Shown: in pieces, positions 1-62,485 of the stretch | Layout of the letters: each line of letters begins with the position of its first letter | Numbering within the stretch: position 1 is the first letter of the stretch | Source of the DNA: Anaerolineae bacterium | Lineage (GTDB): Bacteria; Chloroflexota; Anaerolineae; JAADDB01 | Length of the DNA stretch: 62,485 bases | NCBI GenBank assembly: GCA_015486845.1 | Contig: WFQU01000032.1 | Coordinates: forward strand, 1 to 62,485 | Direction of reading: 5' to 3' | Translations under genes and position numbers: made by a program | Notes under the pieces: generated by a model | What the model was told of the DNA's origin: nothing | What the model saw: only the letters and a program-made list of their open reading frames with translations | Databases searched by the model: none

Positions 1-513
1 ACTTCTAATCGACAGCGTTCTCTGCCCGAGCGCACGGGGGTCAAATCCCCGTGCTACGTCGCCAAGAAGCCCCCTGAAAGGGAGCTGGTGTTGAGCAGCC
101 TCTTGGCAGCGGACGCAACCTTGACGTACCCCGCCACGGCACCGGAGTCGAGGCTTTAGCCGGTGTTGACGCTGCCAAGCCACCTAAAGGCTCGACTCCA
201 GTCGCTTCGTTTTCATCTGCTGTGGTGTGCCGTAGGCTCATGATAACTCTCTTGAAAATAGAACGTTGATTAACGCTGATCTCAAATAAATTAGGCCAGC
301 AATACGAAAATTCCTGTTATTAAACCCGGTTCATACTATTAGCTACGATCAAGTGCCTACCAACGCACGGCAACAACACTAAGTAAGCGCTCATTGCCAA
401 CAGAATGGCGGCGGACAGCAGCGTGGCAGTAGAAAGTGATAGCCCACAACGAACCAGATCCGACGCAGCCAAGAACCTTTTTCAGGGGAGCTGGGGTGTG
501 AAACGCCCCCAGT
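1..513. repeat. mosaic repeat block R1, cut by the window edge; module order is F1 tail, F12, F2 hairpin, F3 hairpin, F4, F5, M1, F6, F10
   Basis: Each module recurs elsewhere in the window, e.g. gcacgg..ccgtgctacg, agcccc..ggggctggtgttgag, tttcatcYgctgYggtgtgccgtaggctcatgataactc, gaaaatagaacgYtgattaacgctgat, ccagcaatacgaaaat. Confidence 0.9.
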
Positions 514-5261: not shown

Positions 5262-6056
5262 TTTGTGCCTTTGCGCCGCTGCGTCAACTTATTTCCAGCG
5301 GAGTTGGCATGGGCCTGCGGCGCACCACAGCGGATGAAAATCTCTTGACAAGATTGGGGATCGCAGGCTTGAGAGGTAATGCTACGGGGATAGGAATGGG
5401 ATTAGTTGATGACGGCTGACAATCTGTTTTATCTTCTTTCTTGGGGGCCAGCCCTCAAACCCCTACTGGGGGCGTTTCACCCCCCAGACCCCCTGAAAAA
5501 GGTTCTTGGCTGCGTCGTGGCCGGTTCGTTGCGGGTTATCACTTTCTACTGCCCCGCTGCTGTCCGCCGCCATCCTGTCGGCAACCAGTTCTAACATATT
5601 GTTGGCGGCTCGAGTTCGGATCAGTTTGATGCTATTCACTAGTGTGAACCAGGCCCGAGAACAAAGGTTTTTCGTATTACCGGCGCGACTGGCTGGCCTA
5701 AGCAACGACCAATGACCTATTTAATTCGTTTTACCAACTTAGCCGGGGGAACGTTTTTCGGAAGGGTTGGAGGGGAACCGTACGGTTCCCCTGCCGGGAG
5801 CTCGAGGGCAGCGCCCTCGAAAGAGAAAAAGAAGGCGAGATTATCTTTGATCAGAAGTTCAACTTCTTGAAGAAGTTGAACTTCTAAAATAGCAAAATCG
5901 CCCTACGGCGATTAGCCTGCAACCTGCGCAGGCAGGTTTCGCAGTTGTGGCAGAGATTTCTAATCGCCGGGCGGAGCAGCCTGCGTTGATCAGCGTTCTA
6001 TTTTTCGGAGGAGAGGGTGCCCTCGGCCACCCTCCAGAGAAGTTTATTTTCAGAGC
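5262..6056. repeat. mosaic repeat block R2: F7 inv, F5 inv, F10 inv, F6 inv, F8, F1 palindrome, F9
   Basis: 5465..5692 is an inverted copy of 283..513. 5696..6053 is a direct copy of 19643..19990. Confidence 0.9.
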
Positions 6057-6103
6057 GTCCTATTTTATTTTCAAGGGAGTTCTTTCAGCGCTTTAAATAA
6101 TGG

Positions 6104-6132
6104 TTGCCAAAGTATACAATCTCTATTATAAT
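6104..6132 (+). promoter_or_regulatory. candidate promoter TTGCCA-17-TATAAT for the LysM/FG-GAP gene
   Basis: TTGCCA 6104-6109 and TATAAT 6127-6132. Confidence 0.5.
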
Positions 6133-9889: not shown

Positions 9890-10516
9890 TTTTGGCCGGC
9901 TTTTCTCATTCTGCGGCACCATTTCAGAGATCAAGTCGAAGAAAAAAGTGTGGCTCAGTACGGCCAACGCAGCCGGCAAAATGAGAAGAATTAACACAAC
10001 GAGCAAAGAACAGACAATGGTCAACGAGAGCGCGAAGAGGACAAGGGAAAGCGTTGCCAATGGGCGCGCCAAAGGCATGAGCATGGCGCTGCGAAAAACG
10101 AGCCACGGCGTCGGCCGGGTCAGGCCAACCAGGAACGGGAAGAGGTAGAGATTGCCGATGCTCCACCAAGCCAAAACGAGCAGCCAAACTAAGGCGATGA
10201 CGTGCAGTGCCGGGGCCGGACTCTGCCGGTAAAAGATGATATTCACGCCGAGAATGACGAATGCGATGATGTCGATCAGCGCTATCACCCAGCTACGCCA
10301 GAAATAGTGCTTGCCGGCATCCCAGAAATCGCTGAACTGCACGCGACGGCCATGTACTCGTTCGTAAGCTAAATGGTTCAGCGCGGCAGTGACCGGCGCG
10401 GCCGGTAGCACTAAGAGCACGCCGGCCCACCAAGCCAGTGAGATGGCGACGAAAAGGAAAAGATCCTCGTATAGCAAGCGCATCGCTTTCCAAAAAGCGT
10501 GCAAACTGGTTTGCAT
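9884..10516 (-). CDS. DUF624/YesL-like integral membrane protein
   Basis: 210 aa with about 5-6 hydrophobic segments. N-terminal pattern resembles the YesL family. Family call is tentative. Confidence 0.5.
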   Translation of the reverse strand: MQTSLHAFWKAMRLLYEDLFLFVAISLAWWAGVLLVLPAAPVTAALNHLAYERVHGRRVQFSDFWDAGKHYFWRSWVIALIDIIAFVILGVNIIFYRQSPAPALHVIALVWLLVLAWWSIGNLYLFPFLVGLTRPTPWLVFRSAMLMPLARPLATLSLVLFALSLTIVCSLLVVLILLILPAALAVLSHTFFFDLISEMVPQNEKSRPKL

Positions 10517-10992
10517 CTGTTATGTGAATCTCCTCTGAAAATAGAACGCTGATTAACGCTGATACACGCTGATCTTAATTTTCATCCGCTGCGGTGTGCC
10601 GTAGGCTCATGATAACTCCCTCGAAAATAGAACGCTAATTAACGCTGATCTCGAAATACATTATGCCAACAATACGAAAATAGTTCCCTCAAAATCAGTT
10701 GACGCAGCGGCGCAAGGGCGCAGGGTGTCTAAAAAAATCAGGCCCTCTATTCGACGGCGTTCTCCGCCCGAGCGCACGGGGGCAAATCCCCGTGCTACGA
10801 AAATGATAAGCCCCTTAGAAAGGGGCTGGTGTTGAGCGACCTCTTGGCAGCGGATGCTATGCTACCTTGACGCACTCCGCCGCCGCGCCAGCATTGAGCC
10901 TTTAGCCGGTGGTAGCCCCACCAACCCGCCTAAAGGCTTGACGCCAGCCGCGTCGTTTTCATCTGCTATACTCCTCATCGTGCGCCTGCGGC
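10517..10992. repeat. mosaic repeat block R3: M1, F5, M1, F6, F7, F12, F2, F3, F4, truncated F5
   Basis: Fills the whole spacer between glyA and the membrane protein gene. Spans more than one period of the roughly 380 bp module order. Confidence 0.9.
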
Positions 10993-12285
10993 TCAACAAT
11001 CGCCAGGCACAGGGAAACCGGTGGTCAAAGCGTGCACTTGTTCTCGTAGATTGTCTAAAAAGGATGGTTCCTCGGTATGGCGTAACGCTTCGCCAATCCA
11101 GTGGCCGATGGTTGCCATTTCTGCCGGCCCCATCCCCCTGGTGGTGACCGCCGGCGTGCCCAAACGAATACCGGAAGAGACTAACGGCGGCTGTGGATCG
11201 TACGGAATCATGTTTTTATTAGTGTGAATGCCGACATAATCCAAGGTCTTCTCGGCCACTTTGCCGGTCACGCCGAGAGGTGTCAAATCTACCAACATGA
11301 GGTGGTTGTCCGTTCCGCCGGAGACTAAGCGCATGCCTTCCGCGGCAACCGCCGTAGCCAAAGCTTTGGCATTATCTAAAATGCGTTGCTGGTAGGCATT
11401 GAAGCCAGGCTGCATCGCCTCGTGGAACGAGACAGCTTTAGCGGCAATGACATGCTCTAACGGGCCGCCCTGGGTGCCGGGGAAGACCGCTCTATCGATC
11501 TTCTTGGCCAGTTCCGCTTTGCATAGGATCAGGCCGCCGCGCGGACCCCGCAATGTTTTGTGCGTCGTGCTGGTCACCACATCGCAGTAAGGTACCGGAT
11601 CCGGGTGCAATTTAGCCGCGATGAGCCCGGCTACATGCGCCATATCCATGACCAAATAGGCACCTACTTCGTCGGCAATCTCTCGCAGCCGGGGATAATC
11701 GAACCAGCGCGGGTAAGCCGACGCACCAACGACGATCACTTTAGGTTTATGTTCCCGGGCCAAGTTGGCCATGCCATCGTAGTCTAATCGCTCCGTATCT
11801 TTGTGTACGCCGTAATGATAGAAATGATAAAGTTGGCCGGAAGCGTTCAGGCGAAAACCGTGCGTCAAGTGACCGCCCTGATCCAGCTTCATAGCCAAAG
11901 CGATGTCGCCGGGCGCCATCAATGCCAAATAAGTGGCCAGATTCGCCTGGGCCCCACTATGTGGCTGTACATTTGCGTGCTCGGCGCCGAATAGCTTTTT
12001 CGCTCGCTCGATGGCCAGCCGTTCGCTGACATCAACCCACTGGCAACCGCCATAATAGCGCCGGCCGGGATAACCTTCGGCGTATTTGTTCGTTAGAACT
12101 GATCCCATAGCGGCCAAAACGGCCGCACTGACGTAGTTTTCCGAGGCAATTAACTCAATCCCTTCCCATTGTCGCCGCCGCTCGCCTTCTATAGCGTCGT
12201 AAAGCTCAGGATCTATTTGATGCAGCGCCCGGCGAGGATCGTCAGTTTCTTCCCACGGTACCCATTTTCCGACTTGTTTTTTCAT
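10993..12285 (-). CDS. glyA: serine hydroxymethyltransferase
   Basis: 430 aa. PLP-lysine motif [14 protein letters not shown] and typical SHMT N-terminus. Confidence 0.95.
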
Positions 12286-12506: not shown

Positions 12507-12551
12507 CACTGATCTAAATTTTCATGCGCTGTGATGTGTCGCAGACCTATG
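12507..12551. repeat. solo F5-like module
   Basis: ctgatctaaattttcatgcgctgtgatgtgtcgcagacc aligns with the F5 consensus. Confidence 0.6.
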
Positions 12552-19289: not shown

Positions 19290-19642
19290 TTGTTTTTACC
19301 TATCTTGTTTCTGTCGATAATAATTTATTAGGTAATGGACCGCTCCATAATAATGAAGCGGCGAGTGATTACTTTATCTGGCAAGGTTCATTGGTGCCAC
19401 ACAGTACAAAATACAGTACAAAGTAACCACTAACCAAGACGGGGAATATGCCGTTCACGTTACTCTGTGCATTGTTTTGCTTGGCCGATATGTTGCTAAC
19501 CTGTGTTGTTTTCCCCAGTTGGGTTTTCTTTCTTGGGGGAGAAAAATGGAGAAAGGAAAGAGGATGGGGGAAATAGACCTTCTTACCATTCTGATTATTC
19601 ATTTTCCACCTTCCATCCTCCCCTTGCCGGCGCGATCGGCTT

Positions 19643-20098
19643 GCCTAAGCAGCAACCAGTGACCTATTTAATTCGTTTTACCACCTTAGCCGGGGGAACG
19701 CTTTTCGGAAGAGTTGGCGGGGAACCGTACGGTTCCCCTGCCGGGAGCTTGAGGGCAGCGCCCTCGAAAAAGAAAAAGGAGGCGACATTATCTTTTGACC
19801 AGACATCGTCCATAGGCAAAGTCATGCTACGGGGATTAGCATGCAACCTGCGCAGGCAGGTTTTGCAGTTGTGGCAGCGATTTCTAATCGCCGGGCGAAG
19901 CAGACTGCGTTGATCAGCGTTCTATTTTTCGGAGAAGAGGGTAAACGAAGACAACGCCTTCGGCTACCCTCCAGGGAAGTTTATTTTCAGCGATCTCTCC
20001 TCTGAGCTGCGCTGCACTTAGCTTTTTCCCCTCCCCGATACGGGGAGGGAAAGGCTTGCCGTCCAAAGAGGCGGTAAGCCAGGGGAGAGGTCTTATTC
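19643..20098. repeat. mosaic repeat block R5: F8, F9, then F11 inverted
   Basis: 19643..19990 is collinear with 5696..6053. 20011..20098 is an inverted copy of 26730..26818. Confidence 0.9.
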
Positions 20099-20922: not shown

Positions 20923-20990
20923 GCTCCCTGAGCATGCAGACATCCTGGCAGGCGGGTTATGACGACCCATTGCCGCAATTCCCTGTTTGG

Positions 20991-21020
20991 AGGTTCAACG
21001 CCTCGCAGAAATTGAACTTC
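20991..21020. repeat. degenerate F1-like palindrome in the 5' UTR of the ATPase gene
   Basis: aggttcaacgcc-tcgca-gaaattgaacttc. Confidence 0.55.
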
Positions 21021-21095
21021 TAAAGGAAGATTGTTTCTGGACGCTTACTGAGATCAAATGTCCTGCTTATGTCATAGGTAACAAGGAGTTATTAC

Positions 21096-26664: not shown

Positions 26665-27075
26665 TTATTATGCCGGCAATACGAAGACCCCTGTTATTAG
26701 ACTCGGTTCATACGATTGGCTACTCTGGAAATAAGACCTCTCCCCTGGCTTACCGCCTCTTTGGATGGTAAGCCTTTCCCTCCCCGATACGGGGAGGGGG
26801 AAAAGCTAGGTGCAGAGCGTCTAAAAAACCATGCCTCCTTTCAGAAGTTCAACTTCTTTAAGAAGTTGAACTTCTGATCGACGGCGTTCTCCGCCCGAGC
26901 GCACGGAGCTCAAAGCTCCGTGCTACGGCGCCAAGAAGCCCCCTGAAAGGGGGCTGGTGTTGAGTAGCCTCTGGGCAGCGGCGCTACCTTGACGTACTCC
27001 GCCGCCGCGCCGGCATTGAGGCTTTAGCCGGTGGTAGACCCACCAACCCACTTAAAGGCTTGACGCCAGTCGCAC
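26665..27075. repeat. mosaic repeat block R7: F6, F11, F7, F1 palindrome, F12, F2, F3, F4
   Basis: Module-by-module matches to blocks R1, R3, R5 and R12. Confidence 0.9.
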
Positions 27076-27802: not shown

Positions 27803-27890
27803 TGCAGATAAATGCTGATACATGCTGATCTCCAATATATTACGCCGGTAATACGAAGACCGCAGCGGCTGAAAAATAGAACGCTGATCG
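27803..27890. repeat. short mosaic block R8 (M1/F6 variants)
   Basis: aatgctgatacatgctgatctccaatatattacgccggtaatacgaagacc, then gaaaaatagaacgctgatcg. Confidence 0.75.
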
Positions 27891-39486: not shown

Positions 39487-40077
39487 CTATGTTCTCGCGG
39501 CTTCGTGGGCCAGAATAATAGCTTCGGCGACAGCACGCATTGATTTTCGGTTGTCCATGCTCATTTTTTGGATGCGACGGAATGCGACTGTTTCTTTCAG
39601 TCCCTGTTCGTCCATCAAAATGCCTTTGGCTCGATCTACCAATTTGCGCGTTTCTAAGGCTTCTTGCAAATTACCTACTTTTTCTTCCAACGCATGAAAT
39701 TCCTGGAAACGGGCTAATGCCACTTCAATGGTTGGCGGCAAGTCACTTTCGCGGAACGGTTTCACCAAGTAACTCACTACGCCGGCCTCCTGAGCCCGTT
39801 TTACCAAGTCCTGTTGGCTATAAGCACTGAGCAAGATAACTGGGGCGATGTCTTCTTCGGTCAAAATACGCGCTACGTCGATACCGTCCATTTTTTCGCC
39901 TTCGAATTTAATATCTGTGATGACAACGTCTGGACGTAATTCACGCGCTAAATTCACGACACTGCGAGCATCCCCTGTTTCACCGACTACTAAATAACCT
40001 TGACTGGTGAGCATTTCTCGCAAATCCATGCGGATTAACGATTCATCGTCAGCAATAATGATTCGCACACGCTCCAT
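39487..40077 (-). CDS. pdtaR: response regulator with ANTAR RNA-binding output domain (PdtaR-like)
   Basis: REC domain IIIADDE...D...K plus a C-terminal ANTAR segment. ATG 40077 is preceded by AGGAGGGG. Confidence 0.85.
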   Translation of the reverse strand: MERVRIIIADDESLIRMDLREMLTSQGYLVVGETGDARSVVNLARELRPDVVITDIKFEGEKMDGIDVARILTEEDIAPVILLSAYSQQDLVKRAQEAGVVSYLVKPFRESDLPPTIEVALARFQEFHALEEKVGNLQEALETRKLVDRAKGILMDEQGLKETVAFRRIQKMSMDNRKSMRAVAEAIILAHEAART

Positions 40078-40099
40078 AGTGTTTCCCCTCCTACTGGAA

Positions 40100-40603
40100 A
40101 TAAACTGCTCTGGAGGGTAGCCGAAGGCAATGCCCTCGGCTACCCTCTCCTCCGAAAAGATAGAATGCTGATCAACGTTGATACACGCTGATCTCAAATA
40201 TACTAGGCCAGCAATACGAAAATAGTCTCCTCAAGATCACTTGACGGAGCGGCATCGAGGCTTTAGCCGGTGATAGCCCCACCAACCCACCTAAAGGCTT
40301 GACTACCCATGCCCGGCGGCTTTCAGCCCCGGGCATGGGTAGTCAAGCCTAAGCCCGCTGAAGCGGGCTGCCTCACCAATGCCCCCTTCAGCGGGTGCCT
40401 CATCATGTAGCACGGAGCTTTGAGCTCCGGGCGCCCTCCGGCTCCTAATTCTGGGGGTGTGTTGCTCCCCCCAAAGTTGGGGGATAGGGGGCGTTTTCAG
40501 CCGCTGTGGTGTGCCTGTCTGCGTGCCCGCACAGGCAGGCCGCCGGCTCATGATGAATCCCTTGAAAATGGTTGATGCAAAGGTGCAAAGCGTCTAAAAA
40601 AGG
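40100..40603. repeat. mosaic repeat block R9 between pdtaS and pdtaR
   Basis: Long hairpin at 40112-40150, then M1, F6 and F4. Also a 21 bp perfect inverted repeat at 40296-40349, F3-like hairpins, F2 inverted, F13, F5 with a nested insert, and F7. Confidence 0.9.
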
Positions 40604-49778: not shown

Positions 49779-49805
49779 TTATCCCGCACAGCAATGGGCT
49801 CGAAT

Positions 49806-49885
49806 AGAAGTTCAACTTCTCGCGAGAAGTTGAACTTCTTAAAGGGGGCCTGATTTTTAGACGCTCTGCACCTTGGCCTCTTGGC
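49806..49885. repeat. repeat block R10: 34 nt perfect F1 palindrome plus inverted F7
   Basis: agaagttcaacttctcgcgagaagttgaacttct, then ggcctgatttttagacgctctgcacc. Confidence 0.85.
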
Positions 49886-50013
49886 GTCTCTGCGCTGAGT
49901 TTTTGGGTTCTGGCTTGTCCAGGTTAGGATGTCCTGGTTCACTGTGAATCGGAAAATTGGGCCTCAAAAAAGAGACATTTTTCCGATTCCGCCTGAAGCA
50001 GAACAAGGAAATG

Positions 50014-51656: not shown

Positions 51657-52436
51657 TTATGCTTGGCGCGGATAAATCGTCACGCGGCGTTGGGAACGTT
51701 CGCCAGAACTTTCGGTGTAAGCGCCGGGGTAATCTCGCAACGTCAAGTGCACGATGCGGCGCTCGGCGGCGGGCATTGCTTCCATCCTGATGGGGTGGCC
51801 ACTTTCGACAACTTGTGCAGCCAAACGCAGCGCCAGCTTTTGTAGGGATGTCCGTCGATGTTGGCGATAAGCATTGACATCCACGTTGATATTCACCCAA
51901 TGTTTCACCCGCTGGTTGATGATGAGTCGAACGAGGTACTCTAAAGCGCGTAGGGTTTCTAACCGACGGCCAATGAGCGAGTCCAAGTCCTCACCTTGAA
52001 TGTCCAAGACCAGCGGTGGATTCTGTGGGTCGATATCAATGCCATGATCTATAGACGCACTCACTTCCGCTGCGATACCCAATTTGGTCAACATGTTTTG
52101 CAAAGCCGAAACAGCCAGTGTCACTAACTCTGGCGAGTAAAGAGGTTGTTCTTCCTCTTGTGCCGGTAAAAGCTTTGTGGAAATGGATGCCGGCGTTTCA
52201 GTTTGTTCTTGTGCGGGAGCGACAACAGGCTCCGGTTCCACAACCGGCTCCACCGCAGAGCCTTTTGGTGTCAACCGGACTAAAGCATCGGTTGCACCGA
52301 TGCCAAAGAGCCCTTTATTGGGTTGTCGTAGCACTTCGATAATGACTTTCTCCTTGCTCAAACCAAATGCCGTTAAACCTTTAGTAATAGCCTCCTGGAC
52401 ACTTTTTCCTTCGAATTCTTTCATTTGACTTTCCAT
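51657..52436 (-). CDS. jag: RNA-binding protein Jag/KhpB (KH plus R3H domains)
   Basis: N-terminal Jag_N, C-terminal R3H RRIVHLTLRD, and position after yidC. Confidence 0.85.
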   Translation of the reverse strand: MESQMKEFEGKSVQEAITKGLTAFGLSKEKVIIEVLRQPNKGLFGIGATDALVRLTPKGSAVEPVVEPEPVVAPAQEQTETPASISTKLLPAQEEEQPLYSPELVTLAVSALQNMLTKLGIAAEVSASIDHGIDIDPQNPPLVLDIQGEDLDSLIGRRLETLRALEYLVRLIINQRVKHWVNINVDVNAYRQHRRTSLQKLALRLAAQVVESGHPIRMEAMPAAERRIVHLTLRDYPGAYTESSGERSQRRVTIYPRQA

Positions 52437-52515
52437 GGGTCTATCCTTTTTTGGTTATCTTGGTCGTGTATTACGTTTACTAAATCGTGACTACAATGAC
52501 ACTTATTACGTGTCA

Positions 52516-52575
52516 CCCCTATTTTTATTCGTTGTGGTGTGCCTGTTTGTGCATTACAGGCCTACGTGCCATCTA
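52516..52575. repeat. F5-like module with a nested hairpin
   Basis: tttttattcgttgtggtgtgcctgtttgtgcattacaggcctacg resembles 40494-40545. Confidence 0.55.
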
Positions 52576-52718
52576 TGCAATCAGCAGTGACTAAGGCTGA
52601 GTTGTTTATTCCCTGAGAAACCGGGCTATTTATGCTGGACAGGTCTCATTGGTGTAGTTCAGCGAAGCAGCCTTGCACTTTCATGCACGCCGCTACCATC
52701 GCTATGCTTGTCAGTTTA

Positions 52719-53570
52719 CTATTTGCGTTTTGGTGTTCCTTTGACTTTCTTTTTGATCTGTTTCGGCGGTGGGGAGGGGGGCGTTGGCGCACTCGGTGCC
52801 GACACATTACTGGCGGCCGCATTGGCTACAACGAGAGACCCCATTTGTTCCGTCGCTTTGTTGACGAAATATTGTTGCCCAATGCCTAAAAAGTTAGAAG
52901 TGACCCAGTAAAGGGAAAGTGCGGATGGCCATGTCAAAGTGAAATACGCAAACATCAAGCTCATCAACCACATCATTTGGTTCATCATCTTGTTTTGGCT
53001 ACTTTGTTGTCCGGTATTGGTGGTCATCCACTGCAACAGGATTTGGCTAACGACCAACAGAACTGGCATGATCAAATACGGCCAAGCGGCACTCCAGCCA
53101 CCCGGAATGGAGGGTGGAAATGGGTATAGCCATTTCAAGCCTCCTCCGATGCGGGGGAAGGAGAGATCAGGGATGAACCACCACCCTACTTGTGTTAAAA
53201 GCCCTCCTGTTGCCAGATCGCGCACGGCATAGTAGAAGCCAAAGAGAATGGGCCACTGCACTAACATGGGCAAACAACCGCCTAAAGGATTGACGCCGGC
53301 TTGTTTGTAGAGTTCTTGTTGGGCCTGCATCATTTTCTGTTGGTCTTTGCCAAATTTCTTTTTGAGCTTTTCGATCTCTGGCTGTAATTGTTGCATGCGG
53401 CGCATCGATTTCATAGAGCTGAAAGTTAGCGGCAGCGTGATCAACCGGAGAATGATGGTAACAAGAATGATTGCCCATCCCCAACTATCTGGAACGTGCA
53501 GGACCGTGAACAGATCATTCGAATATGTCATCAGGAAGACTAATGGTTCGACAAAAATGGTATGTAGCAT
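52719..53570 (-). CDS. yidC: membrane protein insertase YidC (short Gram-positive-like form)
   Basis: 283 aa, 5 TM segments, GCLPMLVQWPILF motif, basic C-terminal tail. Confidence 0.9.
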   Translation of the reverse strand: MLHTIFVEPLVFLMTYSNDLFTVLHVPDSWGWAIILVTIILRLITLPLTFSSMKSMRRMQQLQPEIEKLKKKFGKDQQKMMQAQQELYKQAGVNPLGGCLPMLVQWPILFGFYYAVRDLATGGLLTQVGWWFIPDLSFPRIGGGLKWLYPFPPSIPGGWSAAWPYLIMPVLLVVSQILLQWMTTNTGQQSSQNKMMNQMMWLMSLMFAYFTLTWPSALSLYWVTSNFLGIGQQYFVNKATEQMGSLVVANAAASNVSAPSAPTPPSPPPKQIKKKVKGTPKRK

Positions 53571-53661
53571 GTGATCTCCGTACTTTGTTTGACCAATCTC
53601 GATGAGATTAGCGGTCCGCTTTAGGCTTGTTAGATTAGCCAGCTGGCCTTAATTAGTGTCA

Positions 53662-53874
53662 CTAAGGGACAGGGTCATATCCCCCCGGATTGAACGGGTG
53701 ACAACGAGAAATTCTTTTTGCACCCATCCAGCCGCCTTTGATGACACCATATTTCTCGATGGCTTCATAGGTATAATGGGAACATGTCGGCGTGAATCGG
53801 CAACTGGGCGGAAAAGCGGGTGAGATGAAACGCCAGTAGAAACGGATGGCCTGTAACATCAATTTCTTGATCAT
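53662..53874 (-). CDS. yidD: membrane protein insertion efficiency factor YidD
   Basis: [10 protein letters not shown] motif. ATG 53874 overlaps the rnpA stop as ATGA. Confidence 0.88.
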
Positions 53875-54233
53875 GATTTTTCCACTTTTTCCGGTGTTTC
53901 GATCCAAAGACCTGCTCGCCGGAACAATGATAAAAGCATTGCCTGTAATGCCGTATAGGTTTCATCTTTAGCATCTGGTCGGGCGATGATCACTATATCC
54001 TGCCCTGGCCGAATTTGGGTAACATGATGTCGTACGATTTCTCGCAATCGTCGGCGCACTTTATTGCGCACGACTGCTTTGCCGACCCGCTTGCTGACCG
54101 AGAAGCCGAAACGGCTATGCGCTAAGTGGTTAGGCAGCACAATAATGACGCAACAGTGACTTGACCACGCACGCCCTTGTCGGCGAACTTGCACGAAACG
54201 GTCGTGTTCCCGCAGGCGTAATTGTCGTTTCAC
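53871..54233 (-). CDS. rnpA: ribonuclease P protein component
   Basis: 120 aa, basic, RNR-like motif [11 protein letters not shown], located after rpmH. Confidence 0.88.
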
Positions 54234-54312
54234 GGCCTCGAATTGCCCTTTCTTTTCGTGATTTTAGCCTTAACGACGTGCCGACGATAGCCCTCTGGCG
54301 CCAATGTGCTGA

Positions 54313-54450
54313 TTAGACCGCTAACTGCCTCCGCCCCCGTGCTCGACGTGCTTTGATAACTCGACGTCCGCCTTTACTGCTCATGCGTTGGCGAAAGCCG
54401 TGTACACGCTTACGTCGACGCGCTTTTGGTTGATAAGTTCGCTTAGGCAT
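54313..54450 (-). CDS. rpmH: 50S ribosomal protein L34
   Basis: [45 protein letters not shown] (45 aa) sits inside the longer ORF 54313..54582. Confidence 0.95.
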
Positions 54451-54673
54451 TATGCCCCTCCCCGGTAGTCTTGCTTGATATAATGTAACTGGTTTCCCAG
54501 CATAACACAACCCATGCAAAAAGGTGGAGACGTCGCGTCCCCACAAAAGAGCAATTATATGTTTGAATGGGCAAGACGTCAAATTGCTTAGGGTGCCGGC
54601 GAAGCTAAGCGGATATCCTCCTTAAGTTGACGTGTATGGGGCGCATCTCTCAATGGTTCCTTGCTATGGTGAA

Positions 54674-55825
54674 TCAGAGCAGTTGGTAGCAAAGCACTTC
54701 GTAGGCATCCGTTACCGTTTCCCAATTGTACAAATTATGGACACGGTCCAAAGCCAGACGAGCGAATTGCTCCACTTCATCCGGTGAATCCAGCAAATGT
54801 TGCAAAATTGGCTGCAGCGCTGCTGCGCCTTTCTCTCCGTCGTAAGCAAACCCGGCCGGGCCAATCGTTTCCCTGTTCTCCTCGGTGCCGTTGACAATTA
54901 CCGCATTGCCAAAAGCCATCGCCTCCAGCAGTGCCGGGTGGGTGCCGCCCACACCGGAAGTTTCTACGGAGAGGTAAGCATTGCTGCTCAGCTCGGCATA
55001 TCCTTCTCCGAAAATATATCCGGTGAAGATAACGTGCTCGCCGGCAGACGCCTTTAACTCGGCGATGTAATCCTCGGCGTATGGTGCATCGCCGACAATG
55101 ACACATTTCATATCGCTATCTATGTTTTGCCACGCTTGCACCAAATGGTGAGCGTTATTCTCCGGCACCAACCGTCCTACAAAAAGCACATATCGGCCCG
55201 CTTCCAGGCTGTATTTTTCCAGCCAGGCACCGGGGGGACGGGGCGTTACCGTAGCGCCATACGGAATGTAAGATGGTTCTATGCCGTATCGCTCCCGATA
55301 ATAGCGCTGCACGACCCTCGAATCGGTCAAGAAGGCGGAGGGGAGTCGGGTAGCCATTTTCTCGGCAAACTGGATATACTTTTTGGCTAATGTTGGCCAT
55401 TTCTGCCGCTTCCAGTCCAGGCCGTCCACGTTTAACAATGTTACCTGCCCCACCAGACGGGGAATCCAGGTCACCAAACTATTCCCGGCAATGAAGTAGA
55501 TGGCCACGTCGTATCCTTGTGTTAGCGCGTGGACAGAAGAAAGGGCCGAGTGGACAATGGTATCAAGATATTTGTTGGGGAGCGTGGGTAGGGTCACCAA
55601 CCGCATTCCTTTGTAGGTCGGTTGTCGGTAAGTGACATGATGGGCACGGTTATAAACCGTTACGTTGTGGCCGCGCGCCGCCAAACGACTGCCTAATTCT
55701 TCAACGCATGTCTCAAAGCCGCTGTAACTGGCTGGTACGCCCCGCGTGCCCAACATGGCGATCCGCAATAGCCCACGCCGGCGTCGCAGCCTGACTAATT
55801 CGCTTGGAACAATCGCTTTGCCCAT
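54674..55825 (-). CDS. glycosyltransferase family 4 (DUF1972-like N-terminus)
   Basis: IAMLGTRGVPASYSGFETCVEELG N-terminal pattern and a C-terminal GT1/GT4 EX7E-like region. Confidence 0.8.
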   Translation of the reverse strand: MGKAIVPSELVRLRRRRGLLRIAMLGTRGVPASYSGFETCVEELGSRLAARGHNVTVYNRAHHVTYRQPTYKGMRLVTLPTLPNKYLDTIVHSALSSVHALTQGYDVAIYFIAGNSLVTWIPRLVGQVTLLNVDGLDWKRQKWPTLAKKYIQFAEKMATRLPSAFLTDSRVVQRYYRERYGIEPSYIPYGATVTPRPPGAWLEKYSLEAGRYVLFVGRLVPENNAHHLVQAWQNIDSDMKCVIVGDAPYAEDYIAELKASAGEHVIFTGYIFGEGYAELSSNAYLSVETSGVGGTHPALLEAMAFGNAVIVNGTEENRETIGPAGFAYDGEKGAAALQPILQHLLDSPDEVEQFARLALDRVHNLYNWETVTDAYEVLCYQLL

Positions 55826-55837
55826 TGTACTGATATT

Positions 55838-56340
55838 CTCCTCTGAAAATAGAACGCAGATTAACGCTGATGCACGCTGATCTTAATTTTCATCCGCTGT
55901 GGTGTGTCGCAGGCTCATGATAACTCCCTTGAAAATAAAATAGGACGCAGATTAACGCTGGCTGCGCACGCAGATAAAAAATCAGGCCTTCTTTAAAGAA
56001 GTTCAACTTCTCGAAGAAGTTGAACTTTTAATTGACGGGGTTGGCCAACTTAGCGCACGGAGCTCAAAGCTCCGTGCTACGTAAATGATAAGCCCCTTAG
56101 AAAGGGGCTGGTGTTAAGCTTCGCCCGGCGATTAGAGATCGCTGCTACAACTGCGAAACCTGCCTGCGCAGGTTGCCTGCTAATCGCCGTAGGGCGATTT
56201 TGCAGAGGTTGGCGCGACTTTTAGTCGCTGGGCCGAATCGTTATCCCAGGCCCCCAATTCTGGGGGGGTGTCGCTCTCCCACCAAGGTTTGGGGATAGGG
56301 CGCATTTTCAACCGCTGTGGTAGGCACCATAGGCTCATGA
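55838..56340. repeat. mosaic repeat block R12: M1, F5, M1 variant, F7, F1, F12, F2, F3, F9 inverted, F13, F5
   Basis: Fills the spacer between two glycosyltransferase genes. The left end lies 12 nt from ATG 55825 and the right end overlaps stop 56335-56337. Confidence 0.9.
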
Positions 56341-57534
56341 TGCATCGCTCTCTGCTAATGCCCGTTCGTAGAGGGTTTCGAAAGCTGCCACGTGAGCCGG
56401 GTAGCTGTAACGTGCTAAAGCCCGCTGCCGGCCGCCTTCTCCCAACTTCTTCCGGAGTGCTGGGTCACGGGCTAAACGGACCATCGCTTGTGCCAAATGT
56501 GGAGCGGAACGGGGCTGTGCAAACAACCCGGTTTGATCGGCTACTACGATCTCCAGCGGGCCGCCGTGCGCTGTCGCAATTACTGGCCGGCCGGTAGCCA
56601 TCGCTTCCAACAAAACGATGCCGAACGGCTCCGGCGAAGTCGACGGTAGCAGTAACACGTCTAACGCTGCCATGACCCGGCTTACTGATTCTTGGTAGCC
56701 GGCCCAAATAAAACGCTTTGTCAATCCCAATGCCCGTACCCGATCCTGCAGCGGTGCTAAGATGGCTTCTTCGCCCAAAACCGGGTCGCCGACCACAACG
56801 AATTTTGCCTCTGGCACTTGCTGTGCCACTTCCGCTGCGGCCTCGATGAACAAGTCTTGCCCTTTCCAGCGATGTACCCGGCCCACCACGCCGAAAAGAA
56901 CCTCATTGTCGCTCACGCCCCAGCCCCGGCGCAGTGCACTGCCGTCTACAGAAGGATTAAATTTCTCCACGTCCACCGCGTCTGGAATGGTGACCAAGTG
57001 AGTATCGATGCTCTCCGCGTCGACTCGGATCTGATCGCGGACTGCGTTGGATATAGCCACCACCCAATCAGCATAATGGTTGAAATGATAAGCCAAAAAG
57101 CGGCGTACCGATTGGGGCTGCTCGATGATTTCGTGTACATGCCAAATGTGTGGACGGCCGGTCAAGGCGGCTGCATAAGCGCCGGGGAGCACGGCGCTGG
57201 TGTTGGAATGCACTAAGGCGACATTTTCCTGTCGGATGAGTTGCAACAATTTCCAACTGCCCCAAAGCATCCGCCGGCCTAACCCGGGCATTTGCAATGG
57301 GTGAAAATAGCGTCGCCGCAAAATGCCCATGTTCAGGCGGTAGACGGTAATGCCTTCCTCGGCCAAAGCCTGGCTCAGTGTGCCGTTATACGGCAAATCG
57401 GTGGGCACAACTACCACCGGGCGAAATTTGTTTTTGTCTAAGCGTCGTACCAGTTCGTACAAAACGACATCCGAGCCGTAAAATTCATCGCTGGAATGGA
57501 CAAAAAGGATGGTATAAGGTGCTTCAAATCGCAT
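56335..57534 (-). CDS. glycosyltransferase family 4 / group 1
   Basis: GT4 N-domain followed by LLPSTSPEPFGIVLLEAMATGRPVIAT. ATG 57534 limits the overlap with the upstream gene to 11 nt. Confidence 0.85.
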   Translation of the reverse strand: MRFEAPYTILFVHSSDEFYGSDVVLYELVRRLDKNKFRPVVVVPTDLPYNGTLSQALAEEGITVYRLNMGILRRRYFHPLQMPGLGRRMLWGSWKLLQLIRQENVALVHSNTSAVLPGAYAAALTGRPHIWHVHEIIEQPQSVRRFLAYHFNHYADWVVAISNAVRDQIRVDAESIDTHLVTIPDAVDVEKFNPSVDGSALRRGWGVSDNEVLFGVVGRVHRWKGQDLFIEAAAEVAQQVPEAKFVVVGDPVLGEEAILAPLQDRVRALGLTKRFIWAGYQESVSRVMAALDVLLLPSTSPEPFGIVLLEAMATGRPVIATAHGGPLEIVVADQTGLFAQPRSAPHLAQAMVRLARDPALRKKLGEGGRQRALARYSYPAHVAAFETLYERALAESDAS

Positions 57535-59023
57535 TGTGTACCTCGTTACCGGGAGATAATTGACTACCTCGCTCAATGAGCGCCGCATAAATCCAGGGTA
57601 GCGCCAACCAGCTTCCGTCAGTCGCTTGATAGGCCATGATCAGGAGTAAAAAGCCTAATGTCAAGCCTAATAATGGCTGTCGCCAGGTGGCCGGGGCCCG
57701 GCGTATGCGTTGGAAGGCTGCGCCAAATAGCGTCAAGAGAAAACCGGATAACGCCAATGAACCTAAAATGCCGCTTTCCTGCAGAGCCCGGAAAGTAATA
57801 TTGGAAAGCCAGGCGTCACTGCCCCTTAGCCGGCCGTGGATTTGCACGAACGTGCCCGGTCCCCAGCCTAACCACGGGAAAACTTGCCAGTCGTGGTAAG
57901 CGAAGAGCCAGTCATGCAGCCGTCCGCTGAAAGTCGAATCGTTGGCTAAATCGCCTAATGTGTGCAAACGGGCCAACAATGGGCCGTCAGCCGGCAAGAA
58001 TTGCCAGATAGATGCCACAACCAATGCACCTAACCCGACTATCCCCACGAGCCAAAACAAGCGGCGTTGCCGGACTTGTCGCTCGATCGGCAAAAACAGC
58101 CACAAAAGCAATACTACCGCGGTAAAAGAAACCCAGGCCGCCCGCGCTAAACTAAGCAATAGTCCCGATAGCGTCAATAGCGTCCCAGCTAATAGGAATA
58201 GCCACCAACGATTTTGTCCAAGCCAGGTCTGCCAGTGTGTCCGACGCTTGACGATAGTCGGAATTGGGTTCGTTATTATCTTCGGTAAGGGTGTCGAGAG
58301 CAGTAACGCTAAAAAGAAGATCGCCCAGGCTGCGTTACTGCTGCCAAAAATATTGCCCTCTTCCAATGTTCCATAGGGTATCGGCACGGGCAGAGATCGC
58401 ATCACCTGTACACCAAAAGTGATGTGGGGGTAGAATAATCGGGCGAGCAGGCCGAAGGCGGCTTCCCCGGCAGCTATGACCAGGAATGCCCGCCATGCCC
58501 ATTGCCAGTCACGATCGTCGCGCAGCAAATTGACCGTCAGTAAATAGATGGCAACCATCATGCCTAACCGGATCTGATTGCGCAACGTATCCGCATAATT
58601 GGGTGCGTGGGCAAAAGCGGCCAGTGCCAGAAGCAGCCACCAGCTCACGGCGAAAAAGCCGGGCCACGTGAGGTAAAAGCGTTTTTGGCGGCGATACAAT
58701 TGCCAAAGTAGCATGGGGGCCAACAAGAGCAAAGCTAAATGGGCCGGTCGAACGGTTACTGAGCCGACATCGAAACGTAAGCGGGTCAGCAAAGCGCTGC
58801 CCCACAATATGATGAAAGGAAGTCGCGGCCAGGCATGCCAGGTCCAGTAGATCAATACGACTAACCCTAACAGGCCTAACAGCCATAAGCAGTCAAGGAA
58901 GTGCGTTGCCGCCAAGAGTAATAACAACGGCGTCAACAAAGCGGTCGCAATGAGGAAGACGGGCAACACGCCGGGGGTGGGTGGTCGCAGTCGCCAAACC
59001 CTGAACCCGGGATCACTGTTCAT
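57524..59023 (-). CDS. O-antigen ligase/polymerase-like polytopic membrane protein
   Basis: 499 aa with about 11-12 TM segments, inside a glycosyltransferase/acetyltransferase cluster. Confidence 0.55.
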
Positions 59024-61961: not shown

Positions 61962-62054
61962 AAAAACCTTGTCAAACCTCTTATTATAAGGAGATCATGC
62001 TTCTTAACCAAAAGAGAGCCTGCTTGAGCAAGCAGTTCCGAACGTCTCCTCTGA

Positions 62055-62485
62055 AAATCAGTTGACGCGGCGGCGCAAAGGCGCAGAGCGTCTAAAAAAA
62101 TTAGGCCTCCTTTAAGAAGTTCAACTTCTTGTAACTGTTTAGGCCCAAGCAGGTGGCAGGAAGAACGCCAAGGGTAGCCGACGGCAGTGCCGTCGGCTAC
62201 CCGCACCCACCCCCGTCGGCTACCCGCACCCGCCCTCAGTCACAGTGCAAAAAACTGCCTATTTGCATGCCAAGCGGGAAGACCTGAACAGTTACGACTT
62301 CTCGCAGAAGTTGAACTTCTAAGCCATCGCCAACGCTGCTGCGCTGAGGGAGACGATCTCGGCTTTACCAGGACTTGTGATGATACAGCGTTGGCCGACT
62401 TAGCGCACGGAGCTCAAAGCTCCGTGCTACGTAAATGATAAGCCCCTTAGAAAGGGGCTGGTGTTAAGCAGCCTCTTGGCAGAGG
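62055..62485. repeat. mosaic repeat block R13: M1/F7, F1 left arm, 177 bp nested insert, F1 right arm, F12, F2, F3; cut by the window edge
   Basis: Module matches to R3, R7 and R12. F1 arms at 62116-62129 and 62307-62319. Confidence 0.9.

Follow-up and report, generated by a model that had tools for sequence, protein, structure and literature searches.

Hairpin-rich repeat modules form BIME-like mosaics in the intergenic spacers of a Chloroflexota genome

Non-autonomous elements derived from IS200/IS605 are associated with palindromes and moved in trans by a Y1 HUH transposase, and the ends of IS200/IS605 elements carry subterminal hairpins that are recognised by TnpA; such elements have neither terminal inverted repeats nor a target duplication and insert beside a specific target of 4-5 nt, which abuts one end. 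Core sites of tyrosine recombinases (lox, FRT, dif) have two inverted arms of 11-13 bp with a spacer of 6-8 bp between them. NIMEs are neisserial RS units flanked by dRS3 repeats, while Correia elements are marked by inverted repeats at their termini and by a TA duplication; the pneumococcal BOX element is built of boxA, boxB and boxC, and the small dispersed repeats of cyanobacteria nest in other repeats. REPs and BIMEs are elements of Enterobacteria and Pseudomonas, extragenic and of high copy number, and their cognate RAYT (TnpA-REP, a Y1 HUH transposase) gene usually stands between REPs of its own; in BIMEs and REPINs, REP units of alternating or inverted orientation are set apart by specific linkers. 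REPs are stem-loops with a stem of 5-13 bp, a loop of 2-20 and an unpaired GTAG or CGTC at one end, and the subfamilies within REP families differ by complementary stem residues (PMC3733652). GTAG repeats in Chloroflexi receive a one-line mention (PMC3733652), the only one that we found for the Chloroflexota.

The DNA analysed here is a whole contig of 62,485 nucleotides (“the window”) from a Chloroflexota MAG of a hydrothermal vent. Alignment of the window with itself (BLAST, word size 11) yielded 118 off-diagonal HSPs covering 3,495 bp, as against none in 20 dinucleotide-preserving shuffles, so that the mosaic of recurring modules described in the initial annotation is real, and all of the module sequences quoted there are present. 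The repeat intervals (1-513, 5264-6081, 10529-10967, 19624-20097, 26730-27073, 40094-40510, 49800-49877, 55837-56321 and 62046-62485) coincide with those listed at that time, and short fragments were recovered too (12509-12544, 27811-27889 and, weakly, 52533-52546). The inverted-orientation copies in blocks B, D, G and part of F had gone unmentioned, and a decayed copy of the palindrome F1 at 20979-21043 was absent from the list. Where at least 12 modules had been counted, we now distinguish about 18 (X1-X6, Y1 and F3b having been added), and nearly all intergenic spacers longer than 250 bp in the gene map hold modules, as had been proposed. The claim that full modules lie outside coding sequences has to be corrected at a single place, as the gene at 56335-57588 has its stop codon within a repeat. 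The blocks are best read as assemblies of repeat units that are rich in hairpins, non-coding and non-autonomous and that have invaded the genome of a single Chloroflexota lineage, making up a REP/BIME-like or MITE-like hairpin repeat system of a kind not described before for Chloroflexota.

The 476-bp spacer between the SHMT and DUF624 genes (block C, 10517-10992) is one of at least 12 intergenic blocks in the contig. It folds better than its shuffles (z = -4.3, minus strand) and holds the following features:

10529-10536, minus strand: Shine-Dalgarno motif (GAGGAG type) for the DUF624 gene that starts at 10516, reading TCTCCTCT on the plus strand and abutting the outer end of M1
10537-10575, plus strand: M1, a unit terminus, GAAAATAGAACGC followed by three ACGCTGAT at 10-bp spacing (module map)
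10579-10621, plus strand: F5, the other unit terminus, ending in CTCATGATAACTCCCTC and making with the preceding M1 a minimal 85-bp M1-F5 unit
10623-10649, plus strand: second M1 with two ACGCTGAT units, the start of the long unit
10665-10681, plus strand: F6 (module map)
10696-10744, plus strand: F7, with a 3' half, GTCTAAAAAAATCAGGCC, that serves as left arm to a larger palindrome
10751-10772, plus strand: F12, with a weak 4-bp stem
10772-10798, minus strand: F2, a REP-like hairpin, on the minus strand GTAG, a CACGGGGA/CCCCCGTG stem and a short loop (GTAG-hairpin scan)
10808-10837, minus strand: F3 hairpin, on the minus strand AGCCCCTT-TCT-AAGGGGCT and then TATCATTTTC (terminator-like scan)
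10838-10895, plus strand: F3b, a linker module (module map)
10896-10942, plus strand: F4, a long hairpin, AGCCTTTAG...CTAAAGGCT, in which a second stem, GGTGG/CCACC, is nested
10957-10992, plus strand: degenerate F5, the end of the long unit, immediately next to the stop codon of SHMT (10993-10995)

The unit consists of two fixed ends, M1 and F5, and a variable interior, which is empty (85 bp) or holds either cargo 1 (F6-F7-(F1)-F12-F2-F3-F3b-F4, about 300 bp) or cargo 2 (F6-Y1-X5-X6, about 250 bp). The period of roughly 380 bp suggested earlier is borne out by the 378 bp between the F5 at 10579 and the degenerate F5 at 10957; it is an apparent period, the result of head-to-tail units with fixed ends and variable cargo. 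The M1-F5-M1 string of block C recurs at 55845-55960 with 88.7% identity. F1 is missing from block C between F7 and F12, and in other copies and other species the larger palindrome to which the 3' half of F7 belongs flanks F1. The remaining blocks and fragments of the window are these:

1-513, plus strand: block A, (F1 arm)-F12-F2-F3-F3b-F4-F5 / M1-F6-Y1-X5; the contig starts within the repeat
5264-6081, no strand assigned: block B, rcF7a-rcF5 ... rcX5 ... X1-F1-X2-rcM1-X3, of the second composite family
12507-12551, plus strand: M1b-F5 fragment standing alone, with 91.7% identity to 55877-55912 over 36 nt
19624-20097, no strand assigned: block D, X1-X2-rcM1-X3-X4, with 11 nt in place of F1
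26665-27075, plus strand: block E, F6-Y1-rcX4-F7b-F1-F12-F2-F3-F3b-F4
27803-27890, plus strand: small mosaic, M1b-F6-rcF5 head-M1
40094-40603, plus strand: block F, rcX3 / M1-F6-F7a-F4-hairpins-rcF2-X6-F5
49800-49885, minus strand: block G, F1 and the right arm of the F7b palindrome
55844-56355, plus strand: block H, [M1-F5][M1'-F7b-F1-F12'-F2-F3-rcX2-X6-F5], a 512-bp insertion between two glycosyltransferase genes
62046-62485, plus strand: block I, F7-F1 (left arm) / nested insert, palindromic, of 176 nt / F1 (right arm) ... F12'-F2-F3-F3b; the end of the contig cuts the repeat

A conserved collinear order had been claimed for the modules, and the order F5-M1-F6-F7-(F1)-F12-F2-F3-F3b-F4-F5 is indeed kept in blocks A, C, E, H and I, and likewise in L117, a 7.5-kb contig from the same MAG; it does not extend to the alternative cargo Y1-X5-X6 or to the composite that B and D have instead, X1-(F1)-X2-rcM1-X3-X4 (5677-6053 and 19624-19990 are 81% identical). 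The succession M1 to F6 occurs in A, C, F and L117, and F3 to F3b to F4 in A, C, E and L117. According to the module maps of the window and L117, F4 joins F5 at three junctions (the junction being found also at 193-249 and at L117 270-310) and F5 is followed by M1 in four copies. In block F, which ends about 20 nt before the start of an ANTAR response-regulator gene (ATG at 40076), the F5 is interrupted by a 29-nt hairpin (40516-40544).

The two ends of the unit are unlike one another. M1, with eight copies in the window, consists of direct 10-bp repeats and has no hairpin, F5 has short stems only (CCGC/GCGG; GCC/GGC), and the two are not inverted repeats of each other in the window units. The outer end of M1 adjoins a CTCC-type sequence in seven of nine independent contexts, three gene ribosome-binding sites among them, CTCC being the complement of a ribosome-binding site; M1 also meets GGAG 12 nt ahead of the point where a glycosyltransferase gene starts (55825), and again ahead of an LMWPc gene in a relative (L109). 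Independent junctions of this kind are few, and the adjacency could reflect selection stopping block growth at ribosome-binding sites.

That the blocks are inserted DNA, one of them inside an operon, is demonstrable by comparison of the aligned sequences: block H separates a pair of glycosyltransferase genes which, in both of the nearest relatives, overlap each other. With 55844-56355 removed, the window is collinear with the overlapping gene junction of L109 (89% amino acid identity) and of L111/L112 (77%). The upstream gene takes six codons and its TGA stop (56335-56337) from block H, and no clean target-site duplication was found at its junction, where there is an imperfect CAGAG(G)AG only. 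M1 was considered as the source of the ribosome-binding site at this block and rejected, for in a three-way alignment GAGGAG and the spacer are the ancestral tail of the upstream gene. Block H would survive within the operon since the upstream gene obtains a stop codon from it, while the downstream gene keeps its Shine-Dalgarno sequence and spacer in their ancestral form. The SHMT-DUF624 spacer, 476 bp here, is 103 bp in an 84% relative and 356 bp in a 94% relative, where it holds three short module remnants only; these remnants led us to reject the idea that the spacer of the latter is unrelated DNA. Insertion polymorphism within the population was not seen.

We consider it extremely improbable that the blocks are artefacts, that is, repeat-induced chimeras of short-read metagenome assembly. 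The contig begins and ends in repeat blocks, and two assemblies of the same population (L115, L116) break inside block H, as such chimeras might lead one to expect; however, blocks B, C and H are recovered intact in an independent NCBI MAG assembly, whose contigs (L001, L114) span them at 99.98-99.99% identity, F1 is carried by long-read and multi-megabase contigs from many studies, and block copies differ by 5-25%, so that each block has a unique sequence. Module identity between species (73-96% nt) equals or exceeds that of housekeeping genes (69-76% nt), with the highest values (93-96%) coming from a single 8.8-kb MAG contig, L010, which is possibly mis-binned.

None of the modules is protein-coding. 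A minus-strand mini-ORF of F5 with a Shine-Dalgarno sequence and ATG, MSLRHT(A/T)ADEN*, was discarded as its frame and stop are not kept (it is read through or frameshifted in A, L010 and the second copy of H), as was X5 as a small-protein gene, since gene callers put the ORF on opposite strands in different copies. Searches for relatives of the modules were also empty, in agreement with the earlier remark that these sequences were not recognised: Rfam gave nothing in the blocks at the gathering threshold or at E up to 1 (its matches outside them were tRNA-Pro and one chance sRNA), block C had no match in plasmid and phage collections, and the F2-F3 and F5-M1 patterns had 0 matches in metagenome scans. 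F1 had no match in 72,556 plasmids or in viral contigs, a full-text literature search with its arms gave coincidental primer matches only, and the motif is in none of the papers searched.

F1 is set apart from the other modules by its distribution. Its sequence, AGAAGTTCAACTTCT-N3-4-AGAAGTTGAACTTCT, is an exact palindrome of 33-36 nt in about 30 related species, with exact matches in more than 101 DNA stretches (tiles), all from Chloroflexota; the modules other than F1 are confined to the source species and close relatives. The window contains the following copies:

5853-5885, no strand assigned: F1, exact copy, palindrome
26843-26875: F1, further copy
49806-49839: F1, further copy
55997-56029: F1, further copy (1 mismatch)
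62115-62129 and 62306-62320: F1, split copy
20979-21043: F1, decayed copy

F1 lies outside ORFs at 110 of 118 sites, its arms pair, 127 of the 130 pairs having C..G as their central bases, and it is present or absent within otherwise homologous strings (C as against E and H; D as against B). Two copies are split by nested palindromic inserts, and around 117 sites no direct repeat of at least 3 nt was found above chance. In the MAG BC3.16, 13 of 44 copies stand in unique flanks and the rest within larger palindromes or tandem arrays. The tandem arrays have identical linkers of 14-17 nt (L069, L086), where a CRISPR array would have unique spacers between regularly spaced identical repeats and cas genes nearby, and there are no cas genes in the window; a CRISPR array was accordingly rejected; a likeness of F1 to the yeast FRT site (first and last 7 nt in common) was treated as coincidence.

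With its 13-bp perfect inverted arms and 5-6-bp variable spacer, F1 has the core architecture of lox, FRT and dif-type sites, and it (and possibly other cores) might be acted on by a site-specific recombinase of the tyrosine or serine type, or else by an Xer-like system; the mosaic would then arise by cassette exchange, like pdif modules or neisserial dRS3/NIME arrays, and not by transposition. Different flanking arms are joined at F1 in varied combinations in BC3.16 and the window, target duplications are lacking, and it is the sequence of F1, beyond its structure, that is conserved across species, all of which would suit such a site. Yet spacers vary between F1 copies, which would block most exchange between sites, isolated copies in unique flanks need a de novo origin, a compensatory double change in the F1 stem of L117 points to hairpin pairing, and no recombinase gene is enriched beside F1 or present in the window; we regard this explanation as improbable. 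Similarly doubtful is the proposal that F1 is the site of a DNA-processing enzyme (a domesticated HUH transposase or recombinase), vertically inherited in the Ardenticatenia/Anaerolineae, which with the M1/F5 units would shuffle modular intergenic cassettes targeted 5' of ribosome-binding sites; cassettes targeted in this way could enter overlapping operon junctions without polar damage.

The resemblance to NIMEs lies in a short exact inverted-repeat core (dRS3 there, F1 here) at the joints of variable modules and, as with Correia elements also, in a core common to the species of the group and in elements that can carry outward-facing expression signals. The sequences are nevertheless unrelated, no associated phage or IS110-type recombinase was seen here, and F1 occurs not only nested but also alone and in tandem arrays; unlike Correia elements, the units in the window have neither terminal inverted repeats nor a TA duplication. 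BOX elements share the modularity, the preferred order and the variable number of internal modules, and the cyanobacterial small repeats share the insertion of small palindromes within other repeats, but both belong to a different phylum and have far fewer types of module, whereas here the unit termini are defined and stand beside ribosome-binding sites, and F1 is exact across many species.

F2 is the module that comes closest to a REP, its layout being exactly GTAG, a stem of 8-9 bp and a short loop (3-5 nt) in all six window copies. Together with one copy in L117 these are all extragenic, and F2 is absent from about 80 kb of two relatives. Compensatory stem pairs separate subfamilies both of F2 (A-U in three copies, G-C in two, five compared) and of F3 (U-A in three, C-G in two, five compared), a covariation that is anecdotal given the small copy number of each module (3-8). 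The wider system likewise resembles REPs and BIMEs in its dense extragenic short palindromes, which with linker motifs form mosaics, clusters and tandem arrays, in the lack of target duplication, in a position mostly downstream of genes and in subfamilies with complementary stem changes. It differs in that only one of about 18 modules is GTAG-tagged (no GTAG/CGTC tag was found in F1, F3, F4, the X-modules or M1, the GTAG of X3 being part of a stem), in that F2 stands once per block and in one orientation, the exception being a lone inverted copy (block F), so that the alternation (Y/Z, head-to-head, tail-to-tail) of BIMEs and REPINs never occurs, and in that the units have fixed non-palindromic ends (M1, F5). 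The sequences are, moreover, unrelated to any described REP, and no RAYT was found in the 0.92 Mb searched. The label “BIME-like” thus holds for extragenic, palindromic, modular repeats without target duplication and with a GTAG-tagged F2, and fails for the BIME arrangement. It is a fair analogy for the look and probable behaviour of the repeats; REP/BIME membership is not established, with F2 single per block, most modules untagged and no RAYT in 0.92 Mb.

The initial annotation had reported no transposase, RAYT or integrase gene in the 62 kb, and a Pfam search agrees, finding none of these domains in any window ORF. E. coli RayT compared by tblastn with 0.92 Mb (the window and further loci) had a spurious best match at E = 0.6, and the ORF concerned, in L022, was rejected as a RAYT on inspection, which showed no HUH motif. 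When the ORFs of 101 F1 tiles were clustered and the cluster representatives and 124 F1-adjacent ORFs searched with Pfam, the families around F1 were common paralogous ones only (histidine kinases, ABC transporters, SDR, GNAT), with no family enriched and no transposase among the families listed for the 124 F1-adjacent ORFs.

We lean, by a little over even chances, toward extragenic palindromic elements that are non-autonomous and are moved in trans, probably in the form of single-stranded hairpins, with nesting and recombination to reshuffle them. An enzyme whose gene lies elsewhere in the genome would place copies of the units, and of the single palindromes F1 and F2, at new sites; it most likely recognises folded single-stranded hairpins, and the likeliest candidate is an HUH/Y1 transposase of the RAYT or IS200/IS605 type, which leaves no target duplication and inserts beside a short specific motif, here putatively CTCC. 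Further hairpins would land in the loops of resident hairpins, giving nested palindromes, and recombination at identical cores, above all the 33-36-nt F1, would swap flanking modules and so produce the mosaic. Selection would retain only those insertions that fall after a stop codon and ahead of the ribosome-binding site that follows it. On the sense strand of the genes beside them, the blocks would provide transcripts with stable 3' hairpins, of which F3 is terminator-like. The units are like IS200/IS605 derivatives in their asymmetric ends without inverted repeats, the lack of target duplication, the wealth of hairpins, the strong orientation bias, the probable action in trans and the abutment of one end on a short motif, here CTCC at few junctions, but M1 has no subterminal hairpin and a TnpA/TnpB gene was not found. 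Several observations accord poorly with a Y1 enzyme: M1 is made of direct repeats where IS200/IS605 ends have a subterminal hairpin; F1 and most modules are untagged and F2 forms none of the head-to-head or tail-to-tail dimers typical of REPs and REPINs; and an inverted M1 pair in L111 better suits a DDE-type MITE.

At 11158-11257 of L111, between convergent genes, two inverted M1 copies flank a short hairpin, giving a MITE-like element of about 100 bp, as would be expected if the repeats were classical MITEs, deletion derivatives of a DDE-transposase IS with M1 as terminal inverted repeats, moved by cut-and-paste or copy-paste from a full-length IS elsewhere. Unit sizes of 85-420 bp and an intergenic location fit, and rcM1 is present in blocks B and D; but M1 and F5, the unit ends in the window, do not mirror each other, neither the H insertion nor the 117 F1 sites have the clean duplication expected, and a transposase is missing from the window and from the families listed beside F1, so that we think this origin unlikely.

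Selection on the host could also have shaped such blocks in the absence of any mobility enzyme, if they were cis-regulatory or structural elements (terminators, mRNA-stabilising 3' hairpins, protein binding sites, 5' leaders) spread by duplication and recombination. The F3 hairpin of block C, which follows the SHMT gene, resembles a terminator and has a T-rich tail; F1 lies about 30 nt past stop codons in tandem gene pairs; cargo 1 keeps to a single orientation with respect to the gene upstream of it (C, E, H and L117); the stem changes of F2 and F3 are compensatory; and F1 and the X2 core are conserved better than neutral DNA should be. The 10-bp-phased ACGCTGAT repeats of M1 are candidate sites for a nucleoid protein or response regulator. 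However, F1 is found equally in divergent, convergent and tandem spacers and has no U-tract, decayed copies exist (as at 20979-21043), block C has no promoter-like site and no Rfam match, and the blocks are absent at orthologous sites in close relatives, one even splitting a gene junction that overlaps elsewhere, which marks them as dispensable and recently acquired. We therefore give this explanation little credence and retain trans-mobilised palindromic elements as the preferred reading. GC skew is too weak for assigning the direction of replication, and a strand bias read from it was rejected.

These repeats have practical consequences for the study of this group, as they break metagenome assemblies (the contig starts and ends in repeats, and sister assemblies break within block H) and give rise to spurious small-ORF calls. 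The base-for-base conservation of F1 in about 30 species implies a conserved protein partner and offers a handle for finding it; if F1 were the site of an enzyme that shuffles cassettes, this would be a mode of coexistence between repeat and host not described for REP/RAYT or MITE systems. Block H is a precisely mapped operon insertion that shows how such DNA can be tolerated, with its own stop codon and the ancestral ribosome-binding site intact, and fixed-end units with swappable hairpin cargo provide a concrete model for the assembly of BIME-like mosaics, in a dense and well-structured repeat system of the Chloroflexota, a phylum in which repeats of this sort have been little described.

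In a self-BLAST, the window gave 118 off-diagonal HSPs, every one intergenic, which together span 3,495 bp or 5.6% of its length, and 20 dinucleotide-preserving shuffles of the window returned 0. The repeat intervals of the initial annotation were recovered, including 12507-12551 and 27803-27890, as was (weakly) the short fragment 52516-52575; a decayed copy of the palindrome F1 lies at 20979-21043. The mosaic of short hairpin modules had been described accurately: the repeat system is real and well structured, and the proposed module order is present in blocks A, C, E, H and I and in L117, a second contig of the same MAG, found by a protein-database search with a translated repeat. The annotation also held that the 62 kb lack a transposase, RAYT or integrase, and a Pfam scan of all window ORFs agrees (0 such domains).

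The source, a member of the Chloroflexota, is uncultured and was recovered in metagenomes of hydrothermal vents; the window is an entire 62,485-bp contig, matched at 99.98-99.99% identity by contigs of the NCBI MAG GCA_027008065.1, and SHMT comparison gives Ca. Amarolinea (72%) and Litorilinea (70%) as the closest named relatives. By Pfam on all ORFs, the window genes are housekeeping genes, including rpmH-rnpA-yidC-jag, a suf operon and an aspartate-pathway cluster. Clusters of the rpmH-rnpA-yidC-jag type usually adjoin dnaA/oriC, but dnaA is absent from the 62,485-bp window despite the rpmH-rnpA-(yidD)-yidC-jag cluster (51657-54582, minus strand). The window has a weak, for the most part positive GC skew.

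Comparison of orthologous loci shows that the blocks are inserted DNA. At block H, 509 bp separate two glycosyltransferase genes of the window (56335-57588 and 54674-55825). The same genes overlap (TAATG and ATGA) in the 89%-identical L109/L110 and the 77%-identical L111/L112, and once window 55844-56355 (512 bp) is removed, both relatives again align collinearly. On the gene strand, this insert has F5 at its start and M1 at its end; it gives the upstream glycosyltransferase six codons and a TGA, and the ancestral C-terminal tail GAGGAGAATATCAGTACA is kept 3' of it as the Shine-Dalgarno and spacer of the second gene. A clean target duplication is lacking: the two junctions share just an imperfect CAGAG(G)AG. 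Block H is also spanned by an independent NCBI assembly contig (L114), which speaks against an assembly artefact, an explanation that we find extremely improbable. The SHMT-DUF624 spacer that holds block C measures 103 bp at the orthologous site of an 84% relative and 356 bp in a 94% relative, in which the module content is three short remnants only (F1 arm, 14/15; F2 core, 13/14; F5 head, 11/11). Blocks run exactly up to a stop codon, a Shine-Dalgarno or a sigma-70-like promoter (6104-6132), all of them functional boundaries. That promoter, of near-consensus sigma-70 type (TTGCCA, 17 nt, TATAAT), lies between block B, which ends just upstream, and a LysM/FG-GAP gene.

About 18 modules can be distinguished (M1, F1-F7 and F12 of the initial annotation, plus F3b, X1-X6 and Y1); some have inverted copies, and almost every one is a hairpin. 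Block C folds more stably than its shuffles, at z = -4.3 (minus strand) and -2.9 (plus strand), and F2 and F3 each have two subfamilies distinguished by a compensatory base-pair change. That the modules are selected regulatory hairpins seems to us rather improbable. They are arranged in a larger structure: units with M1 at the start and F5 at the end, of three kinds, listed here with two recurring parts.

Repeat units and recurring parts
Window 10537-10621 and 55845-55929: minimal M1-F5 unit, 85 bp
M1...F5: long unit, cargo F6-F7-(F1)-F12-F2-F3-F3b-F4
Block A 254-513; L117 5196-5540: alternative-cargo unit, F6-Y1-X5-X6
Window 56110-56250, 5885-5990 and 19808-19915; L104 14120-14262: X2 copies
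Window 40516-40544; L117 about 5490-5520: F5-interrupting hairpin

The 378-bp "period" of block C, [M1-F5][M1-F6-...-F4-F5'], arises because units stand head to tail (F5 then M1 in 4 copies, F4 then F5 in 3). A second composite, X1-(F1)-X2-rcM1-X3-X4 (rc, inverted), occurs in blocks B and D, 81% identical across 377 bp. X5 is a 140-bp repeat (window 374-513 versus 5465-5604, inverted, 86%; also L117 5334-5438). The short ORFs (44 and 52 aa) that annotation pipelines place in it switch strand from copy to copy and are probably artefacts of the repeat, not genes. The X2 core (about 50 nt, AAACCTGCCTGCGCAGGTTGC...AATCGCCGTAGGGCGATT, GTAG in the hairpin loop) is near-invariant in all 4 copies; one copy is from another species with genes merely ~75% identical, its core still almost unchanged. 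A related GC-rich hairpin of ~29 nt, CCTGTCTGCG...CGCACAGGCAGG, breaks F5 at an identical position in two copies and looks like a nested small-palindrome insertion, propagated afterwards.

In 7 of 9 independent contexts, a CTCC-type sequence stands directly before the outer end of M1 (GAAAATAG...): at the ribosome-binding sites of the DUF624 and glycosyltransferase genes (window) and of the LMWPc gene (L109), the F5 tail, the X3 tail and both ends of the L111 element. This adjacency suggests that insertion is target-specific or that junctions form at SD-like microhomology. The L111 element (11158-11257, also in L112), from the 77%-identical relative, is an inverted M1 pair around a short hairpin, ~100 bp, between convergent genes. 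It is MITE-like, which favors DDE-type MITEs whose inverted terminal repeat would be M1, a reading we consider unlikely. M1 itself (10546-10575 and others) carries 2-3 direct copies of ACGCTGAT, their number differing among M1 copies, at an exact 10-bp spacing (helical phasing) that resembles an iteron or response-regulator binding array.

All modules except F1 are restricted to this species and close relatives, at 73-96% identity between species (93-96% comes from one small MAG contig), no less than housekeeping genes (69-76% nt). The motif GGTTCTGGCTTGTCCAGGTTAGG is kept at 80-96% between the window (49901-49929) and another species' contigs (L010 3750-3779; L104 13919-13946); in L010 it lies just 5' of an SD-ATG, and by eye it matches neither the sigma-70 nor the sigma-54 consensus.

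F1 was searched for as GAAGTTCAACTTC-N3-8-GAAGTTGAACTTC. The pattern occurs in >101 tiles, and the matches listed are all Chloroflexota MAGs, of ~30 species labelled Ardenticatenales, Promineifilaceae, Anaerolineae and Caldilineae; viral contigs and plasmids gave 0 matches, and we found no paper on F1. The element is A-GAAGTTCAACTTC-T, N3-4, A-GAAGTTGAACTTC-T. Among the matches listed, the arms are nearly always paired (central bases C..G in 127/130), pairing ends right outside F1 in 100 of 119 copies, 110 of 118 copies are non-ORF, the typical position is ~30 nt past a stop codon and the sites show no target duplication; all gene orientations occur. F1 is gained or lost within otherwise homologous strings: at the F7-F12 junction it is missing in block C and present in E and H, and it is missing in block D and present in B. 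In the F1-rich Chloroflexota MAG BC3.16, 13 of 44 copies have unique flanks. Ten F1 arms in the window carry one mismatch, against 10-20% difference in adjacent modules. That F1 is kept exactly from species to species argues for a trans-acting protein, itself conserved, which would read the F1 sequence, not structure alone. The F1 layout of 13 + 5-6 + 13 equals a lox/FRT-type core, as site-specific recombination at F1 would have it, an explanation to which we assign a low probability.

F1 also sits at the centre of larger palindromes and forms tandem arrays; the head-to-tail arrays in BC3.16 (L069 2596-2725; L086 6124-6300; L037 1917-1993) have identical 14-17-nt linkers, a 45-49 bp period and up to 4-5 copies. 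Two copies (window 62116/62307; L035) are interrupted by a nested palindromic insert of ~170 bp. One copy, L117 52-82, combines a C-to-T change in one arm with its G-to-A counterpart in the other, the only such compensatory pair seen. Other perfect palindromes bracketed by GTAG...CTAC, for example GTAGGACAAGTTTGCAAACTTGTCCTAC, GTAGAGACGCAAAATCTTGCGTCTCTAC and GTAGAGACGTTGCAATGCAACGTCTCTAC, recur across Chloroflexota MAG species (L020, L043, L073, L096; L011, L027, L060; L020, L091); several such cross-species families may exist, F1 among them.

F2 (6 copies), read in the sense direction of flanking genes, is GTAG, CACGGAGCT/AGCTCCGTG and a short loop. This layout of GTAG, stem and short loop is what defines GTAG-type REPs (PMC3733652); unlike the REP/BIME arrangement, F2 stands one per block, and it was not found in ~80 kb from two relatives. 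The comparison with BIMEs in the initial annotation is reasonable as an analogy, but REP/BIME membership is unproven because alternating REP dimers, one defining feature, were not found, and because the search for another, a RAYT gene, covered just the window and 0.92 Mb of sampled DNA, in which no Y1/RAYT homologue was found. Among F1-adjacent ORFs no family is enriched, and the families listed for them include no transposase.

The blocks fit non-autonomous extragenic palindromic elements of the REP/BIME and IS200/IS605-derived kind, since they are hairpin-rich, with tandem arrays and compensatory stem subfamilies; lack terminal inverted repeats and target duplication in the window; have a short motif adjoining one end and are consistently oriented with respect to the upstream gene; and turn over rapidly at orthologous sites with no linked gene. 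The mosaic would have formed from nested palindromes and flanks recombined at F1. The repeat system belongs to a known kind of element and is not a new category; its main interest lies in the operon-internal insertion, the units with fixed ends and variable cargo, and the lineage-wide, exact palindrome F1.
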